Origin: Eledone cirrhosa
Lineage: Eukaryota
Length of the DNA stretch: 64,000 bases
NCBI GenBank assembly: GCA_964016885.1
Contig: OZ024751.1
Coordinates: forward strand, 16,926,001-16,990,000
Reading direction: 5' to 3'
Under the pieces are notes generated by a model. It worked only from the letters and a program-made list of their open reading frames with translations, was not told the origin of the DNA and searched no databases. A program made the translations under genes and the position numbers. Below, one piece after another: positions 12,633 through 46,550 of the stretch. Positions within the stretch are counted from its first letter, which is position 1. The number at the start of each line of letters is the position of its first letter.

Positions 12633-12760
12633 GTAAAAGGTAAGGTAGAAATAACAACACAATCGGTACAGTATATGGAAAGGATATATTAGGTTAACGC
12701 TTGATATAGCAGAAAGAGGGTCTTAACGTTTCGGACGCTAGTCCTTCATCAGAAAAAATG
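12633..12760 (-). ncRNA. PLE-like 3' terminus (family H3) with minimal hammerhead at 12721-12756
   Basis: Reverse strand: TTTT-CTGATGA-A GGAC TAGC GTCC-GAAA-CG-T-T-AAGA. The downstream tail (tcaagcgttaacc...tgtaccgattgtgttg...ttttac) is shared with 62535-62657 and 45123-45196. Confidence 0.7.
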
Positions 12761-15930: not shown

Positions 15931-16005
<75 letters not shown>

Positions 16006-16008
<3 letters not shown>

Positions 16009-16116
16009 AAAAAGTATGACCCCGACGGCAGAGCTCAACCCGTTTCGACGGCTACTTCTGGACTCAGAAATAGCCGTCGAAACAGCATGAGCTCTGCCGT
16101 CGAAGTCATACTTTTA
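16006..16116. mobile_element. Short fold-back of PLE-like family H5
   Basis: aaaagtatgaccccgacggcagagctc...gagctctgccgtcgaagtcatactttt, the same family as 44514-45083. Confidence 0.7.
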
Positions 16117-16671
16117 TATAAGTATATATTTATATATATATATTTATATATGTTTATATATTTATATATGTTTATATATTTATATATGTTTATATATTTA
16201 TATATGTTTATATATTTATATATGTTTATATATTTATATATGTATATATATTTATATATGTATATATATTTATATATGTTTATATATTTATATATGTATA
16301 TATTTATATATGTATATATATATGTATATATTTATATATATATATATTTATATATATATATATTTATATATATTTATATATATATATATTTATATATATT
16401 TATATATATATATATTTATATATATATATATTTATATATATTTATATATATATATATTTATATATATATATATTTATATATATGTAGATAAATCTACCAA
16501 GAGTTTACGGTAGTGTCCAATCCGTATGAAGAACTCAATGTATTCCGGATATCATGGAAAGAAGAGATGTAATGAAAAATCACTTTCGGTGAAAGATAAA
16601 CGGTATACAGAGTCAAGATAAAATATTAAACAAATAATGAATAAACAATTCCTTATATTAAACAAAAAAAG

Positions 16672-16825
16672 TTCATTATTTAACGATCGTTTCTAGGATA
16701 TATATGTGTTAGAATTGGCATGCATATTCAACAGATCTATGTACAAAATTATACAAAATTATACAAACTATCAAGGTTAAATATACTTACCAACACATAT
16801 ATACGCCGTCTTCAGAAATAATGAA
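16672..16825 (-). ncRNA. Type I hammerhead with extended helix II (element sense copy)
   Basis: Reverse complement of 24150-24303; see that feature. Confidence 0.75.
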
Positions 16826-17450
16826 GTATATTTATTGATAATAACAACAATTCAAAATTTCAGGTCCGTTTGGGAACAAAATTGACCAATGAAAACACAA
16901 AGGGTTAAATGCAGTTCGGTGTGTGTATATACATGTAAAACCCTTACACATATTTTACAAAAATGTATGTATAATTTGTATACGCATACTAAAAGGATGG
17001 ATGCAAATACAAAATTTCAAGGTTAATGTCTCTGTAAGTTTATAATGCACAGATAAGATGCGTATTGACACACAAATATGAAAATATATTTTTTCATACT
17101 CACACATATCCGTACAATCACACATACACGCGCGTATATGCATAAATATACACATAACCACGAACATACAAACACACACACACCCCCACTCACATTTATA
17201 TATGTGGATATAAAATCATAAGCACATGGATATTAATTCACTCACATAAACACTGGCACACACACTTAGATCAAGATACAGAAATTAGGTGGGAGGGGGG
17301 GAGAGGTCAGTATTCAACGGTCTGAGCAGACTGCCTAATATAGATGTATCTATAAACTAAGAAAATAAAAAATAATAAATAATAAATAAACATTAAAGAG
17401 GAAAGAATAGAAAGAAAAAAGAAAAAAGAAAAAAGAAATATATCAAGAAA

Positions 17451-17491
<41 letters not shown>

Positions 17492-17704
17492 TACATATAT
17501 ATATATATATATATACACACACATATACATATAATATACATATATATACACATAGACACACACACACACATACATATATATATACACACATATACAAACA
17601 CATACATACATATACACACATCCACACTAAAAACATACATACACACACATATATAAACATATACATATACACACATACATACATATACACATATACATAC
17701 AAAT

Positions 17705-17753
<49 letters not shown>

Positions 17754-18064
17754 TATGTATATACACGTACATATATACACACATATACATATAATCACAC
17801 ATACTATATAGACACACATATATATATAACCACACACATACATGCACATATACAACACTTACATACTAATATACATACAGATATACACATACATAGCTAT
17901 ATATACACACAAATATATACAGACTTACATATATACATACAGACAAATACTTACGCATCTATATATCGGTATATACATACAAACACCACTACACTATCAC
18001 ACAACTTAGACATACAAAGAGAAAGGTATATACCTATACACACATACATATACAAATAGAAAAC

Positions 18065-18153
<89 letters not shown>

Positions 18154-18391
18154 CATACATATACACATACACACACATACACATACACACACATACATAC
18201 ATGTACACACACATAGAAATATATACGCATACACACATACACACATACATATAAAGTCATACATACACATACACCTACACGAACATACACATACACATAT
18301 ATAAAGATATATATACACACACACACACACACAACACATACACACACACACATATATATAAAAAAAATAAATAATAAAGATATATACATAT

Positions 18392-18469
<78 letters not shown>

Positions 18470-18817
18470 ACATACACACACATACATACACACATACATA
18501 GACATACATGTACATACATACACGTACATCGATATACATACATATATATATACACACATAGACATATACATACATACACACACAACTTACATACACACAT
18601 ATATATACACATGTATATTCATACATAGAATTAGATATATAATCATACATATATAAGCACTTACTTATACTCATATATACAAATACATACGCATCCATAT
18701 ATGCGTATATACATAGAAACACCACTACAACCTCACCCAACTCAGACATACAAATAAAAATAAAAATAAAAAGGCATATGTATATACATATATACACGCA
18801 TTAATAGAGATATATAT

Positions 18818-18888
<71 letters not shown>

Positions 18889-19122
18889 TTCATATATATA
18901 TATATAGATACCCACACACACATACCACCATAAATACACATACAAACACCCACATATACATATATATACACACGTATATATATATATATATATATACACA
19001 CACATAAAAAACAGACATGCACATATATATATATATTTTTTTACACTTATATATACACATATTATATACACATACACAACCTCACATATACACACATACA
19101 CATAAGTTATATTATAATAATA

Positions 19123-19167
<45 letters not shown>

Positions 19168-19252
19168 CACATATATATATATATATACATTTAAACATAT
19201 ACATACATATATACACACATACGAATATAGACATATATTCACACATAGACAC

Positions 19253-19289
<37 letters not shown>

Positions 19290-19575
19290 TACATATACAC
19301 AGACACATATACACACTCACATATATATATGTATATATATGTGTGTGCACACACACACATATACACACATACACACACATACACATAAACACATATATGT
19401 GCATACATGCACACACACACACATATATATCCACATAGATACGAAGATAGACATATAAATAGAGAGACATACACATATATATACACAACACACATACACA
19501 CACATACATACACACACATATACATATACATATATATACACATATATATATTTTTTTATATATACATATATACAC

Positions 19576-19606
<31 letters not shown>

Positions 19607-20964
19607 CATACACATACACATACACACATTCACATACACATACATATATACATGCATATATACACATATATATACATACATACACACACTCATATATAGA
19701 CACACAATCTTACATTCATATTTGCATGCGCATATATGTATTTTTATATTCAGATATAAATACCCAAACCTATATAGACACCTACCTACATATATATTCA
19801 TACATACACGCTTACAAATACAGATGATAATAGTATGGGGGAAAGGGGGGGTTTGGAGAAGGGGATCATAGTAAATATATGTTTCAAGAAACATAGAATG
19901 TTTTCCGTATCTTGATCCAATGTATGTTTTTACATAGTTTCAGTGTTAGGAAATACAATAAACAAGAACTAAGGCAAAATCTATGCATCTCAAAATAAAC
20001 AAGTATACCATTAATTATATGTTAACTAAACCAAAGATAGTTAACATATTGATTTCTAAGGTGTAAATTAGTTAGGTTTATAATATTTGAAGCAGAATTT
20101 TGAAGTTAAATAGTAGTAGAATATTAATTATAGTATAACTAAATTAAAGTTAATAACGTTATGGTATCAATATTAGGAAATGAATTTAGTAATAGGGAAA
20201 AAACAAATAAAGTATTACATCAGTAGTAGAATATAAATTATAGGTTAACTAAATTAAAAATTATATATTTATTTCTATAGTATATGTTAATTAGGTATAT
20301 AATACATAAAACAGATATTGTATTTTATCAATAGCAGAATATAATTATATGCAAATAGAAATCAAAATTAATACATATACATATACATATACATACACAT
20401 ACATATATACATATATATACACATATATATATACATATATACACATATACATACACGCACACATACACATACTCATATACATATACATATTTTTTCAAAA
20501 AAAAAAAAAAAAAAAAATTGCATAGAATATATTAACTAGGTATATATCCAAAACACATCCCATTCTATGATTACATGACATTCTGCAATTCGTCTGTATA
20601 AGGATACTAATTTTAAGCAAATTAAATTAAATTTTTAGGTTGATTAAAATTAAAACCAAATCATAAATATATTTCTAAAATGTATATTAATTAGGTCTAT
20701 AATACTAAAAATTATTTCTCTGTCATTGGATACACGATATTATTTTGTTATATTTTATCTGTAAAAAAATTATAATAAAAGGTTTAAATAAATTAAAATT
20801 AATCTATAAATTAAATTACTAAGTATATATTAGTAATATTTAAAGGTTTTTCACAATTTATGATTACATAATATTTTATATTCTCATCTGTAATAAAATT
20901 TTAATTAAATTAAATTTATAGGTTAACTAACATTTAAATTAAATTAATTTCTAAAATAATGTTA

Positions 20965-21340
20965 TTAATTAGGTTTATAATATTTAAATGTTTTTTTTAG
21001 TTTATGATTACACGATATAATTAATTCCTGTCGTTTATTTAATAAGATATCCTTAGACTTCATTATTTCAAATAGTTCTTGGGAACATAATCTACATTCA
21101 TTTCTATTATTTTGATAAGGGGTGGCTCTTTTGAGCACACTCCAGGTCAAATCATATTCTATATTCTTATTTTTATAACTATTGATTTTTTCTGCTAGAG
21201 ATGTTGTATTAGCCAGTGCGGCATTTTTAAAACTATGCTTGTGGGTATTAAACCTTGTCTTAAAATTGTTAGAGGTAGCTCCTATATATGAGCAAATAGA
21301 ATCTTTAGTTTTAACATTACATTTATAGACTATGTTGTGC
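20965..21340 (-). pseudogene. GIY-YIG endonuclease domain of a Penelope-like retroelement (probably Naiad-like), 5'-truncated but open
   Basis: [29 protein letters not shown]...T.L...W.VLKRA.PY....CRLCSQE...I....LLNKRQELIISCNH. It has GIY/YIG motifs, the catalytic R, E and N, and C-x2-C...C-x-H. The ATG at 21354 comes from microsatellite beyond the inversion junction. Confidence 0.85.
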
Positions 21341-21393
21341 ACACACATATACATATATATATGTGAGTGTGTATATGTGTCTGTGTATATGTA

Positions 21394-21430
<37 letters not shown>

Positions 21431-21515
21431 GTGTCTATGTGTGAATATATGTCTATATTCGTATGTGTGTATATATGTATGTATATGTTTAAATGTATAT
21501 ATATATATATATGTG

Positions 21516-21554
<39 letters not shown>

Positions 21555-21709
21555 TATTATTATAATATAACTTATGTGTATGTGTGTATATGTGAGGTTG
21601 TGTATGTGTATATAGAATCATTAGTTTTAACATTACATTTATAGACTATGTTGTGCACACACATATACATATATATATGTGAGTGTGTATATGTGTCTGT
21701 GTATATGTA

Positions 21710-21746
<37 letters not shown>

Positions 21747-21829
21747 GTGTCTATGTGTGAATATATGTCTATATTCGTATGTGTGCATATATGTATGTAT
21801 ATGTTTAAATGTATATATATATATATGTG

Positions 21830-21864
<35 letters not shown>

Positions 21865-22106
21865 TATTATTATAATATAACTTATGTGTATGTGTGTATA
21901 TGTGAGGTTGTGTATGTGTATATAATATGTGTATATATAAGTGTAAAAAAATATATATATATATGTGCATGTCTGTTTTTTATGTGTGTGTATATATATA
22001 TATATATATATACGTGTGTATATATATGTATATGTGGGTGTTTGTATGTGTATTTATGGTGGTATGTGTGTGTGGGTATCTATATATATATATATGAATG
22101 TGTGTG

Positions 22107-22159
<53 letters not shown>

Positions 22160-22504
22160 ATATATATCTCTATTAATGCGTGTATATATGTATATACATA
22201 TGCCTTTTTATTTTTATTTTTATTTGTATGTCTGAGTTGGGTGAGGTTGTAGTGGTGTTTCTATGTATATACGCATATATGGATGCGTATGTATTTGTAT
22301 ATATGAGTATAAGTAAGTGCTTATATATGTATGATTATATATCTAATTCTATGTATGAATATACATGTGTATATATATGTGTATGTAAGTTGTGTGTGTA
22401 TGTATGTATATGTCTATGTGTGTATATATATATGTATGTATATCGATGTACGTGTATGTATGTACATGTATGTCTATGTATGTGTGTATGTATGTGTGTG
22501 TATG

Positions 22505-22575
<71 letters not shown>

Positions 22576-22807
22576 ATATGTATATATCTTTATTATTTAT
22601 TTTTTTAATATATATGTGTGTGTGTGTATGTGTTGTGTGTGTGTGTGTGTGTATATATATCTTTATATATGTGTATGTTCGTGTAGGTGTATGTGTGTGT
22701 ATGACTTTATATGTATGTGTGTATGTGTGTATGCGTATATATTTCTATGTGTGTGTACATGTATGTATGTGTGTGTATGTGTATGTGTGTGTATGTGTAT
22801 ATGTATG

Positions 22808-22896
<89 letters not shown>

Positions 22897-23214
22897 CTAT
22901 ATGTTTTTCTATTTGTATATGTATGTGTGTATAGGTATATACCTTTCTCTTTGTATGTCTAAGTTGTGTGATAGTGTAGTGGTGTTTGTATGTATATACC
23001 GATATATAGATGCGTAAGTATTTGTCTGTATGTATATATGTAAGTCTGTATATATTTGTGTGTATATATAGCTATGTATGTGTATATCTGTATGTATATT
23101 AGTATGTAAGTGTTGTATATGTGCATGTATGTGTGTGGTTATATATATATGTGTGTCTATATAGTATGTGTGATTATATGTATATGTGTGTATATATGTA
23201 CGTGTATATACATA

Positions 23215-23257
<43 letters not shown>

Positions 23258-23470
23258 ATTTGTATGTATATGTGTATATGTATGTATGTGTGTATATGTA
23301 TATGTTTATATATGTGTGTGTGTGTATGTTTTTAGTGTGGATGTGTGTATATGTATGTATGTGTTTGTATATGTGTGTATATATATATGTATGTGTGTGT
23401 GTGTGTCTATGTGTATATATATGTATATTATATGTATATGTGTGTGTATATATATATATATATATATGTA

Positions 23471-23518
<48 letters not shown>

Positions 23519-24149
23519 CTTGATATATTTCTTTTTTCTTTTTTCTTTTTTCTTTTTTCTTTCTATTCTTTCCTCTTTAATGTTTATTTATTATTTATTA
23601 TTTTTTATTTTCTTAGTTTATAGATACATCTATATTAGGCAGTCTGCTCAGACCGTTGAATACTGACCTCTCCCCCCCCCTCCCACCTAATTTCTGTATC
23701 TTGATCTAAGTGTGTGTGCCAGTGTTTATGTGAGTGAATTAATATCCATGTGCTTATGATTTTATATCCACATATATAAATGTGAGTGGGGGTGTGTGTG
23801 TGTTTGTATGTTCGTGGTTATGTGTATATTTATGCATATACGCGCGTGTATGTGTGATTGTACGGATATGTGTGAGTATGAAAAAATATATTTTCATATT
23901 TGTGTGTCAATACGCATCTTATCTGTGCATTATAAACTTACAGAGACATTAACCTTGAAATTTTGTATTTGCATCCATCCTTTTAGTATGCGTATACAAA
24001 TTATACATACATTTTTGTAAAATATGTGTAAGGGTTTTACATGTATATACACACACCGAACTGCATTTAACCCTTTGTGTTTTCATTGGTCAATTTTGTT
24101 CCCAAACGGACCTGAAATTTTGAATTGTTGTTATTATCAATAAATATAC

Positions 24150-24303
24150 TTCATTATTTCTGAAGACGGCGTATATATGTGTTGGTATGTATATTTAACC
24201 TTGATAGTTTGTATAATTTTGTATAATTTTGTACATAGATCTGTTGAATATGCATGCCAATTCTAACACATATATATCCTAGAAACGATCGTTAAATAAT
24301 GAA
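24150..24303 (+). ncRNA. Type I hammerhead with ~115 nt helix II insertion
   Basis: TTCATTATTT-CTGAAGA-CGGCG TATATATGTGTTGG...CTAACACATATATA TCCTA-GAAA-CGATCG-T-T-AAATAATGAA. 10 bp helix I, palindromic helix III ACGATCGT. Confidence 0.75.
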
Positions 24304-24374
24304 CTTTTTTTGTTTAATATAAGGAATTGTTTATTCATTATTTGTTTAATATTTTATATTTATATATATATATT

Positions 24375-24405
<31 letters not shown>

Positions 24406-24872
24406 ATTTATATATATATATATTTATATATATTTATATATATATATATTTATATATATTTATTTATATATATATTTATATATGTATATATTTATATATG
24501 TATATATTTATATATGTATATATTTATATATGTATATATTTATATTTATATATGTATATATTTATATATGTATATATTTATATTTATATATGTATATATT
24601 TATATATGTATATATTTATATATGTATATATTTATATATATATATATTTATATATGTATATATTTAAATATGTATATATTTATATATGTATATATTTATA
24701 TATGTATATATTTATATATGTATATATTTATATATGTATATATTTATATATGTATATATTTATATATGTATATATTTATATATGTATATATATTTATATA
24801 TGTATATATATTTATATGTATATATATTCATATATGTATATATATTTATATATGTATATACGTATATATATT

Positions 24873-24903
<31 letters not shown>

Positions 24904-24938
24904 ATTTATATATATATATATTTATATATATATATATT

Positions 24939-24969
<31 letters not shown>

Positions 24970-25024
24970 ATTTATATATATATATATATTTATATATATT
25001 TATATATTTATATATATATATATT

Positions 25025-25109
<85 letters not shown>

Positions 25110-25112
25110 ATT

Positions 25113-25161
<49 letters not shown>

Positions 25162-25188
25162 ATTTATATATATATTTATATATATATT

Positions 25189-25219
<31 letters not shown>

Positions 25220-25238
25220 ATTTATATATATATATATT

Positions 25239-25295
<57 letters not shown>

Positions 25296-25363
25296 ATATA
25301 TATATTTTATATATATATTTTTATATATATATATATATATTTATATATATTTATATATATATA

Positions 25364-25424
<61 letters not shown>

Positions 25425-25641
25425 TTTTATATATATATATATATTTATATATATTTATATATATATATATTTATTTATATATATTTATATATATATATAT
25501 TTATTTATATATATATATATTTATATATATATTTATATATATATATATTTATTTATATATATATATATATTTATATATATATTTATATATATATTGATAT
25601 ATATATATATATATTTATATATATATTTATATATATATTTA

Positions 25642-25700
<59 letters not shown>

Positions 25701-25769
25701 TTATATATATATATATATTTATATATATATTTATATATATATTTATATATATATATATATTTATATATA

Positions 25770-25808
<39 letters not shown>

Positions 25809-26095
25809 GTAAAGTTATATTTAAAATTGTTGGGTTACAACTAGTAAATATTTATAACTGATATAAAAGCACTCGACAAATATTTGGAGTATATTTGCAA
25901 TATTAAATAAATGGAAAACTATATTTATAAAACCATATTTATTTCATTATATATATTTCGGGGATATCATATTAACAATATGCTATGCCTTCATCAGACA
26001 AAATACAATATAAACAGTTTTATAGATAAATATATTCGACATACCGTAATAAACTTCAACTTCATTTGAAGAGGTTTACGCTAGCAGTCATATAT
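25809..26095 (-). mobile_element. PLE-like terminus (family H4) with hammerhead at 25941-26004
   Basis: Reverse strand: ATTTTGT-CTGATGA-AGGCATAG CATATT GTT AATATG ATATCCCC-GAAA-TATATA-T-A-ATGAAAT. Helix I pairs with G:U wobbles. Confidence 0.7.
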
Positions 26096-26422: not shown

Positions 26423-26466
26423 GTATTTATATATATATATTTATATATATATATATATATATATAT

Positions 26467-26714
26467 GATTATTTCTGAAGACGGCGTATATATGTGTTGG
26501 TATGTATATTTAATCTTGATAGTTTGTATAATTTTGTATAATTTTGTACATAGATCTGTTGAATATGCATGCCAATTCTAACACATATATATCCTAGAAA
26601 CGATCGTTAAATAATGAACTTTTTTTGTTTAATATAAGGAACTGTTTTCATTGTTTATTCATTATTTGTTTAATATTTTATATATATATACATATATATG
26701 TATTTATATATATA

Positions 26715-27036: not shown

Positions 27037-28156
27037 TATTTATATATATATATTTATATATATATATATTTATATATATATATATTTATATATATATATA
27101 TTTATATATATATATTTATATATATATATTTATATATATATATATTTATATATATATATATTTATATATATATATATTTATATATATATATATTTATATA
27201 TATATATATTTATATATATATATATTTATATATATATATATTTATATATATATATATTTATATATATATATTTATATATATATATTTATATATATATATT
27301 TATATATATATATTTATATATATATATTTATATATATATATTTATATATATATATATTTATATATATATATATTTATATATATATATATTTATATATATA
27401 TATATTTATATATATATATATTTATATATATATATATTTATATATATATATTTATATATATATATATTTATATATATATATATTTATATATATATATATT
27501 TATATATATATATTTATATATATATATATTTATATATATATATTTATAAATATATTTATATATATATATTTATATATATATATTTATATATATATTTATA
27601 TATATATATTTATATATATATATTTATATATATATATTTATATATATATATTTATATATATATATTTATATATATATATTTATATATATATATTTATATA
27701 TATATTTATATATATATATTTATATATATATTTATATATATATATATTTATATATATATTTATATATATATTTATATATATATATTTATATATATATTTA
27801 TATATTTATATATATTGAAGACGGCATATATATGTGTTTGGTATGTATATTTACTTTTGATAGTTTGTATAATTTTGTATAATTTTGTACATAGATCTGT
27901 TGAATATGCATGCCAATTCTAACACATATATATCCTAGAAACGATCGTTAAATAATGAACGTTTTTTGTTTAATATAAGGAACTGTTTCATTGTTTTATT
28001 CATTATTTTTTTAATATTTTATCTTGACTCTGTATTCCGTTTATCTTTCACCGAAAGTGATTTTTCATTGCATCTCTTCTTTCCATGATATCCGGATTAC
28101 ATTGAGTTCTTCATACGGATTGGACACTACCGTAAACTCTTGGTAGATTTATCTAC
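26467..28156 (+). mobile_element. Partial-tandem pair of hammerhead-containing termini, sister subfamily of the 16484-24358 PLE
   Basis: Copies at 26467-26681 (tail-less) and 27816-28156 (with tail). Both carry an 8-9 nt insertion after 'aaggaa' that is absent from 16650/24325. Confidence 0.75.
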
Positions 28157-44513: not shown

Positions 44514-44518
<5 letters not shown>

Positions 44519-45082
44519 AAAAGTATGACCCCGACGGCAGAGCTCAAACCGTTTCGACGTCTATTCCTGAGTTGCCTTATCCTAGAAGAATGCCCTGACA
44601 AAGGCTAGGGGTCCTTCACTCCCAGTAGTTTAACCGTGTGATCGGGTATCCAGCCCGATTATTTTATGTCCCCACGCATATACATACACACGCATACATG
44701 CATATACATATATACATATGTATTTACATATTTACACATACATACATGATGGCTGCAACTTGATTTCGAGTAATGAATGACATTGGCGGGGACGACGCAC
44801 GTGGTGGTGGAATGTTGGGGTGGGGACGACGGAAGGGTGAGGGAGATGAGGAGTAAGGAAGTATTATTAAGGTGTATGAAGGAGATTGACACAAACTTGC
44901 AGGTAGGGCCCTAAGTGTTGCTCTACTTCTTCACTTACCACCTTGAGTCCAGAAATAGCCGTCGAAAGGGCTTGAGCTCTGCCGTCGGGGTCATACTTTT
45001 TCCTATTTCCCACTCTACTACCCTAAGTATTGAGTACTCTGGTTCGTTATGGTCCATCTGATTCCTTACCACAATTCCTTTG

Positions 45083-45125: not shown

Positions 45126-45294
45126 AAAGATAAACAGAAATATCAACACAATCGGTACAGTCTATGGAAGGTATATATTAATTTAACGCTTGATATATAT
45201 GTATATATATAAGTATATACTATACCTAATGTACATATATAATGTATATGTATATATATGTCTGTGTACGCATCTATATATATGTGTGTATATA

Positions 45295-46550
45295 GCGTCC
45301 GTCACTTACTACCGCCTGACTGTCGTGCCTTGCCCTAAGGAAACACTCACCACCATGGAACGCATGCTCTTCCAATTTCTTTGGAAGAAGCGTCCTCCTA
45401 TGGTGAGAAGATCCATCTGCTGCCAACAACCTTCGAAAGGAGGGCTGGGGATGCCGTGGTTGATGATGCGTAGGCACGCATTAAGGCTACGGCACCTACA
45501 GGTATTCCTCACTGGTCAACCGGTGTGGGCTCCGTTCGTGAAACGAGCCTTTCCGAGACTCGTCTCACTCACCGAGCTACAGTCCTGGGTCAAGCAAAGA
45601 TCCGGAAAACTGGGAGACTGGCACACTGAGTGTGCTCAGGCGCTCAGGGCTCTCTGGCAAGCGGGCCGGGCCATCGGTGGAGAATCCACCTCATCATTCT
45701 ATAGAGGGCTGGTGGCTAGCAGGGGCGATGACACCCTTGGAGAGTCGCTGGACATGGAAGAAGACGAACTGGCCAGCCTGTTCGGTAGGACTTTCGGCCC
45801 AAGACCAATGGACAACTTCCAGAAGTCACTGGCCTGGCAGTGCTACCGAGGGGCTCTACCCGTTCGAGAGAGGCTCTACAGACACGGGCGCCCGGGCAGG
45901 GATCCCTCAAAAAAGATTTGCCCTAGATGCGTGCGTCACGAAGAAACCGTGGCGCACGCATTGGTGCAATGTCCGGGCGTGGCTGATCTGTGGGGCTACG
46001 CCGAACAACTGCTGTCGCGGGTGGCGCCGATTAAATTGACAGCCGAGTCCGTGATGACAATCAAACCGCCTCCCCTCTTCACAAAGGAAGCAAAGGCGGT
46101 TTTTCTGTGCGTAATAGCCATGTTGAAAGAGGTTGTTTGGTGGACACGATTGAAAGGTCTGAGGTCAGGCAACTTCCTCTCTGGCCATAGTCTGGTCTAC
46201 TTCTTCCGATATCACTTCGGAAGAAGGATAAGAATGGAGAGAGAGGTGCTTGGCCACAGGCAGTTTTATGAAAGGTGGGTGATAGTGGCGAGAATGGCTC
46301 GTGTAAATGGGCCTTCTCTGTATACCATCCTGTAGGTAAAGAAGTAAAGGAGAGGGGAGCACCTTCTCCATGTGCTCCCCGGGCAAAGGATTGCACACTT
46401 TTTCGGGGGTGTGTGCAACCCCCATCACGTCCCCTCCCTTTTGAGGTTATTTTCGATTATTTTCATGTTACACCCTTTTTACTCGATTATATGTAAACTC
46501 CCCCTTTGTATTTGTCCCTTCTTTTTATGCCTTTATGGTAAATAAAGAAA
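45295..46550 (+). mobile_element. 5'-truncated L1/Tx1-clade LINE: ORF2 C-terminus with zf-RVT-like domain (open to 46335) and 3' UTR
   Basis: FQFLWKKRPPMVRRSICCQQPSKGGLGMP, then AWQCYRGALPVRERL and CPRCVRHEETVAHALVQC (C-x2-C-x7-H-x4-C). GC-rich island with AATAAA at ~46541, followed by TA-rich sequence. Confidence 0.9.

Follow-up and report, generated by a model that had tools for sequence, protein, structure and literature searches.

A head-to-head pair of truncated Hydra-type Penelope-like elements in a (TA)n array of Eledone cirrhosa, with a 3' untranslated region that has likely grown and been edited from TA to TG

A stretch of 64,000 nucleotides from Eledone cirrhosa (assembly GCA_964016885.1, contig OZ024751.1, positions 16,926,001 to 16,990,000 of the forward strand; hereafter the window, with positions counted from its first letter) contains a 7.9-kb inverted structure in which part of a GIY-YIG endonuclease (EN) of a Penelope-like element (PLE), kilobases of microsatellite and a predicted hammerhead ribozyme lie together. 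The question it raises is what kind of event placed them there and whether the microsatellite belongs to the element. The structure consists of two 5'-truncated copies of one PLE family, lying head to head inside a (TA)n array. Taken together, we consider it probable that these are Hydra-type copies whose 3' untranslated region (UTR) has likely grown and in which ADAR-type editing has likely turned TA into TG.

The locus and its family

Aligned with the second arm (21652-24357) in reverse complement, the first (16618-19351) shows 7 substitutions and 14 indels, all 14 indels falling in repeat units or homopolymers, and the ~2.7-kb near-identical inverted arms of the original prediction, which had been made from the letters of this stretch, are therefore present. 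So is the open GIY-YIG of ~125 codons that it described; the frame is open at 20965-21338 on the minus strand, gives a weak match to Pfam GIY-YIG that is below the cut-off (E 0.0066), and matches, at 99% identity, the C-terminal end of open frames of 830 codons in other parts of the genome. The features of the locus are as follows.

16124-16484, no strand: left target flank, an interrupted (TA)n array
16481-16617, minus: 137-nt tail from end A (16618) to end B (16481), on this arm only
16672-16825, minus: type I hammerhead of the first copy, cut predicted after GUU at 16682
16826-17450, minus: distal 3' UTR, TA/TG sequence in partial decay
17451-19700, minus: main TA/TG microsatellite block of the 3' UTR (sense-strand T 1095, A 642, G 441, C 72)
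19701-20964, minus: proximal 3' UTR, degenerate ~110-bp AT repeats interrupted by tract 1 (about 20371-20520)
20965-21338, minus: final ~125 codons of an 813-aa open reading frame (ORF; GIY-YIG endonuclease, CxxC and CxH motifs), 5'-truncated
21336-21338, no strand: TGT microhomology at the junction
21296-21924, plus: 316-bp junction duplication, 45 bp of EN and ~270 bp of arm
21652-24357, plus: second, shorter 5'-truncated copy (the inverted arm), terminating at end A
24150-24303, plus: hammerhead of the second copy
24349-25810, no strand: right target flank, an interrupted (TA)n array

On the minus strand the order is that originally described, namely EN, ~110-bp AT repeats (~70% alike), microsatellite block, hammerhead, tail and (TA)n, except that the block taken to be TA/CA is TA/TG on the RNA strand of the element, since TG exceeds CA in 36 of 36 tracts of the window UTR; the flanks split 14 to 20. 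The ORF had been thought to break at a shared GTGCAC, which merely begins the inverted arm, and the microhomology between EN and arm at the head-to-head junction is TGT. The tandem duplication (21296-21611 and 21612-21924) crosses this junction and has ATA microhomology. The insertion is recent, as had been proposed, with no private substitution over 354 bases of the window copy's ORF. Its description as a 5'-inverted insertion is not supported in that form, as the inverted arrangement is the usual footprint of the family: all 57 distinct inverted insertions pair one short end, at site A, with one tailed end, at site B, 137 nt further on. Nor is this an inversion of one cDNA in the manner of L1, because both arms copy the same 3' sequence. 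The window locus itself is a routine insertion.

When the 3.0-Gb genome was searched with the EN all 150 scored matches were 99-100% identical, many of them within 830-codon open frames. Counted from its first Met, the single ORF of full copies is 813 aa long and, on checking, has the anticipated reverse transcriptase (RT) upstream of a C-terminal GIY-YIG. Tandem full copies have a period of 6.65-7.06 kb and the unit of the short subfamily is ~3.9 kb. Counts of exact words, which are lower bounds, are 6,745 for the hammerhead, 5,058 for end B, 1,857 for the EN, 790 for the middle of the UTR (a variable region) and 307 for read-through into the next unit. One array (G000:C1:183733001-183763000, L023-L025) holds four full tandem units and an inverted arm, its 3'-most unit lacking ~0.9 kb of UTR common to the other three.

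The 813-aa ORF has a YRDD motif and 118 homologues; Pfam gave no RT match and only a weak GIY-YIG, and with the EN alone as query no longer homologues were recovered. The traits of EN+ Penelope elements are present (tandem and inverted copies, pseudo-long terminal repeat, tail at one end), as are the RT motifs of the Hydra clade, RVRWR (RWR, where relatives have RWK or RWR) and SDKTG (DKG changed to DKT), and its linker and EN motifs, CNCRNKANC (CxCX5C), CRLC (CxxC) and CNH (CxH). The (TA)n target is also that of Hydra, 159 of 162 family ends directly adjoining TA. The EN is C-terminal, not N-terminal as in Naiad/Chlamys, and the tandem period exceeds the <3 kb that is general for Hydra elements. 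This is a young, high-copy and active family, of Hydra type judged by the motifs in PMC8557442 (section 11).

The proposal that the microsatellite-rich 3' region belongs to the element is borne out by other copies, as in 37 of the 40 closest the hammerhead core lies 2.4-4.6 kb past the stop codon (median 3.8 kb; 4.1 kb in the window copy), the remaining three being one failure of the search pattern, one copy with a 2.4-kb insertion and one ending at about 2.4 kb. A second set comprised 60 of 100 listed matches to the EN word on chromosome 1, taken roughly in order with copies already included and some partner arms skipped, and includes some cases of two arms from one insertion. A hammerhead is reached in 53 of these, at 1.0-1.8 kb in 15 copies, 1.9-2.7 kb in 7, 3.1-3.2 kb in 5 and 3.5-4.3 kb in 26. 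The UTRs thus fall into subfamily classes of about 1, 2.5 and 3-4.6 kb; among other families of the same genome two have UTRs of 2.0-2.3 kb and one of about 1.1 kb.

Ends, insertion route and hammerhead

Inverted copies have already been described for PLEs (PMC8557442, section 6), and for PAc, a Poseidon element studied in vitro, reverse transcription begins at two internal sites that define the tail, both target strands being cut and extended (Frangieh et al. 2024, PMC11167929). By analogy with PAc, the PLE protein would nick both strands of AT-rich DNA and two cDNAs would be begun at two internal sites of the RNA; each nicked strand would use a different start site, so that one end falls at A and the other at B, and the truncated cDNA ends may then be joined via 3-nt microhomology into a head-to-head pair. 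Priming is not by homology of the repeats: the UTR holds ~14 internal (TA)n tracts, yet 53 of 60 copies extend all the way to the hammerhead. PAc belongs to another clade and its start sites lie within its ORF, whereas here they lie upstream of the ORF, and no counterpart of the strict pairing of A and B ends was found in the sections of that paper drawn on here.

The ends of short copies cluster at the 5' strand of hammerhead stem I, where 45 of 63 lie in a sample in which short inverted pairs are over-represented; the cluster may reflect the 5' end of the RNA, endonuclease trimming or a halt of the RT. Two candidates did not stand up: the hammerhead cut site is rejected as the main 5' end, being found at 0 of 63 ends in that sample, which is biased against it, and by eye at ~3 of 33 arms from 20 loci chosen without the hammerhead word, and the stem I hot spot is not supported as the start of a full-length RNA, as full-ORF copies provide 10 defined upstream ends and none lies there. 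Insertion of PAc does not need hammerhead cleavage (PMC11167929, as far as the text drawn on goes), which matches how seldom 5' ends fall at the cut site here. Many perfect inverted insertions of 500-600 bp are also present (L083-L097, L208, L216, L228), in which both arms halt within a few bases of stem I. In the window itself two more short copies of the family, at 26460-26681 and 27816-28156 on the plus strand in direct orientation, begin near stem I; one stops at A, the other at B, and 1.1 kb of TA-rich repeat lies between them.

The hammerhead expected at the end of the element has a complete core (16825-16672), with a 10-bp stem I, CUGAAGA, a 115-nt stem II, GAA, a palindromic stem III and a GUU triplet. 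An earlier suspicion of a broken half-hammerhead or a 12-bp deletion was ruled out, as GAA and stems III and I are found 115 nt downstream. No hammerhead was recovered with Rfam at gathering and E-value thresholds, because stem II is 115 nt long. The fold has a z score of -5.76, none of 200 shuffles being equally stable, and the predicted hammerhead shape lies 3 kcal/mol above the minimum-energy fold. A mismatch-tolerant search found the core kept in 214 of 218 copies, with GUU (190) or GUA (20) at the cut, both of which the NUH rule allows. Pairing holds in 96.8% of cells across 31 variants and falls to 24-57% when the alignment is slid; covariation is weak, 2 of 47 pairs having changed on both sides. 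In a second Hydra-type family, with an 808-codon frame, a motif at L171:3632-3750 resembles a hammerhead whose stem II is long and whose core is variant; its minimum-energy fold did not yield the hammerhead shape. Short-stem hammerhead motifs of other families occur in the window at 12752 and 54626 (minus) and 62538 (plus).

Elsewhere in the window, a ~120-bp palindromic element resembling a miniature inverted-repeat transposable element lies by TA arrays (16005-16123, also 44514-44572 and 44944-45005), and a 382-codon open frame at 45187-46335 on the plus strand is, from the impression of its translation, a candidate 3' part of ORF2 of a long interspersed element.

Repeat change and growth of the UTR

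The A-to-G excess in the UTR is strand-specific and confined to self-complementary sequence. Three other Hydra-type families have the same sense-strand TG bias as the window element. Tract 1 has no TG in 7 mid-length copies, where it is pure TA; the 4 intermediates have 6-9 and all remaining copies 13-37, which over 83 copies amounts to 1,790 TG and 3 CA (24 and 0 in the window copy), and TG positions differ among the intermediate copies. Isolated interruptions in pure TA number 281 TG to 14 CA in 91 UTRs against 68 TG to 113 CA in flanks, and minority interruptions 30 TG to 0 CA. The ORF and the non-repeat UTR have no A>G excess, which argues against a general polymerase bias. The repeat block has a predicted fold of -276 kcal/mol for 700 nt, and genes with an A-deaminase domain are present in the genome.

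Further evidence comes from a hairpin captured by one lineage of the element (L185). The insert, two copies of another hammerhead family in inverted orientation, has been spread by this lineage: 40 of 40 scored loci among 1,464 candidates match it at 94-100%, and element UTR surrounds it in 12 of 12 loci examined. Of the 29 changes that set it apart from two free copies of its own family, 25 are A>G and 1 is T>C, the A>G changes being on the strand of the host element in both arms of a hairpin that still folds fully, and by eye about 15 of 26 variable columns among 12 copies are further A/G changes. None of the 25 edited A follows a G, against 10 of 94. A-to-G change on one strand, paired RNA and a disfavoured 5' G are thus all found in the hairpin, a pattern which fits the preferences of ADAR (PMC8586724, in the parts drawn on here); of these marks of hyper-editing the TA tracts have the strand bias, with a blurred direction. 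A 3' end of the family that was captured and edited in this lineage lies in the window at 25810-26085 on the minus strand, and the 7.9-kb insertion occupies the adjoining TA array.

These sequence patterns make it likely that TA became TG through ADAR editing, with slippage as a confound: self-paired (UA)n RNA would be edited A-to-I by an ADAR-type enzyme, and the change fixed as TG when the RNA is reverse transcribed. Several observations count against this. A fourth family (L174, L177) has little bias; between close subfamilies G>A and A>G in repeat blocks are nearly equal per base (184 and 197 per 10^4), so that direction there is blurred by slippage and misalignment; the two arms in the window differ by 2 A/G and 2 T/C changes, which is unbiased; interruptions in the 3' flank lean the opposite way on the element strand (113 CA to 68 TG); and the lack of 5' G in the hairpin is from too small a sample to count alone.

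It is conceivable, and to our minds rather unlikely, that with the same element and insertion route the TG bias arose from rare substitutions amplified by slippage, or from a polymerase error specific to repeats, editing being restricted to the captured hairpin. The near equality of G>A and A>G would suit this, as would the several-fold variation in tract length between copies and the inheritance of TG units within lineages, where they can multiply by slippage, such that counts cannot be treated as independent. Slippage favours neither strand, however, yet tract 1 begins pure and gains TG almost exclusively, TG appears at different places in different intermediate copies, and the strand agrees in four families whilst the target flanks differ.

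The length of the UTR can be ordered in time with less certainty. Long-UTR copies look youngest, with 2.7 and 1.8 private substitutions per kb of ORF as opposed to 8.6 in short and 9.7 in mid-length copies (Spearman -0.54, p 3e-5, n=53), and the best tree gives the order short, then mid, then long (support 99/98 and 98/98). Lengthening is visible as tandem duplication of AT units, change in tract length and nested insertions, and the short form carries one AT unit that is freshly triplicated in one copy. Growth of the UTR over time is accordingly likely, though not proven, and the 4-kb form may have arisen by duplication, slippage and the capture of later insertions. Growth is weighed down by an approximately unbiased (AU) test that did not reject another root (p 0.42), by long branches meeting at that root, by residue polarity against outgroups that splits 17 to 19, by tree-nested copies of the long group with shorter UTRs (3.1-3.2 kb), which make growth non-monotonic, and by insertions of short interspersed elements (SINEs) that inflate some short-group lengths. 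A SINE-like element lies at an identical ATTATT-containing stem I site in three short-subfamily copies (L109, L110, L111), and at a similar motif in L044.

The AU test and the split polarity would equally suit a long ancestral UTR from which the short subfamilies derive by deletion, which is compatible with editing and which two other families with UTRs of 2.0-2.3 kb and the occurrence of single-copy deletions (L050) also favour. We hold this to be improbable, given that short and mid-length copies exceed the long ones about fivefold in private substitutions and also have more stops, that the AT unit of the short form is single, that tract 1 of mid-length copies is short and pure, and that 27 of 27 published Hydra entries are <=3.05 kb. 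Finally, the junction is seen here in the assembly sequence, but that the inverted arm arose through misassembly or a subsequent segmental inversion-duplication is very hard to credit when the arms differ at 7 sites and by 14 indels, have the two fixed ends found in 57 of 57 cases and meet at a microhomology.

Growth and editing may be linked, and we lean only slightly towards a ratchet in which (TA)n tracts are expanded or gained, fold upon themselves, are edited by ADAR and are rewritten as TG with each cycle, the dated subfamilies recording the steps. Other elements, and once the family's own, land in UTR tracts, and one such composite has been re-mobilised. Foreign inserts lie in or beside UTR TA or TA/TG tracts in 6 of 100 copies examined, and in L184 a long-type copy is seated in a TA tract of a mid-type UTR that continues beyond the stretch covered; L169, a candidate nested insertion in another family's UTR, was rejected as it sits in the 3' flank. 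The earlier suggestion that the element spreads TA/CA repeats and creates new targets is correct in that its tracts receive later insertions, and overstated in scale, since 1,857 x 53/60 x 1,237 bp gives an estimate of about 2 Mb or 0.07% of the genome; TA/TG-type sequence makes up 18-25% of the sampled, non-random genome regions.

Relation to known systems

The closest published relatives are the Hydra clade, including Hydra-1_Obim (Craig et al. 2021, PMC8557442), and in what that paper gives in the parts used here they share the single RT-EN ORF, RW(K/R), DKT, the CxCX5C linker, CxxC/CxH, insertion in (TA)n, a 3' hammerhead, tandem and inverted copies and a tail at one end. They differ in that the unit here is 6.7-7 kb, as opposed to 1.08-3.05 kb in total for 27 listed families, the UTR 4.1 kb rather than the ~0.13 kb estimated by eye for Hydra-1_Obim, stem II 115 nt where File S2 has short hairpins, and the tail 137 nt in place of 30-40 nt; about 100 extra low-complexity residues also lie between RT and EN. 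The minimal type I hammerheads of PLEs (Cervera and de la Pena 2014, PMC4209133, in part) have a like core, an extra base after A9 and a short palindromic helix III that suits dimers, whereas their helix II is 6-8 bp and that described here ~35 bp within the 115-nt arm. ADAR hypermutation of RAV-1 and avian leukosis virus, as covered in the parts of PMC8586724 used, is likewise clustered A-to-G, disfavours a 5' G and is captured by reverse transcription; here the copies are endogenous and inherited, the changes cumulative over rounds and the microsatellite motif itself apparently altered. Non-LTR retrozymes (Li et al. 2026, 10.64898/2026.07.22.740005, in part) resemble the family in its thousands of short hammerhead-only derivatives (6,745 hammerhead against 1,857 EN words), although those here are mostly inverted or single ends of 210-350 bp rather than tandem arrays.

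In the open-access literature, of which coverage was incomplete and excluded bioRxiv supplements and Repbase, we found no report of an editing-driven change of TA to TG in a retroelement UTR, of Hydra UTRs of several kilobases or of Hydra elements with a stem II of such length, and the parts of an O. vulgaris repeat paper drawn on here (PMC13282606) do not mention Hydra. The architecture, target and clade are already published, and it is the growth of the UTR at family level and the likely editing of its repeats that are worth following.

Such elements would be under-called, as repeat masking breaks up the UTR and both Rfam and short-stem descriptors overlook the hammerhead. The intact young copies, with 307 tandem junction words and many 830-codon frames, are material for questions of PLE transposition such as the reason for one short and one tailed end per insertion and the role of the hammerhead. 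The family offers a concrete route by which RNA editing may pass into inherited sequence and alter a simple-repeat motif. Were the ratchet to hold, host RNA editing would be making TA/TG microsatellite in the germ line, eroding the element's own targets and rewriting the passengers of its UTR.

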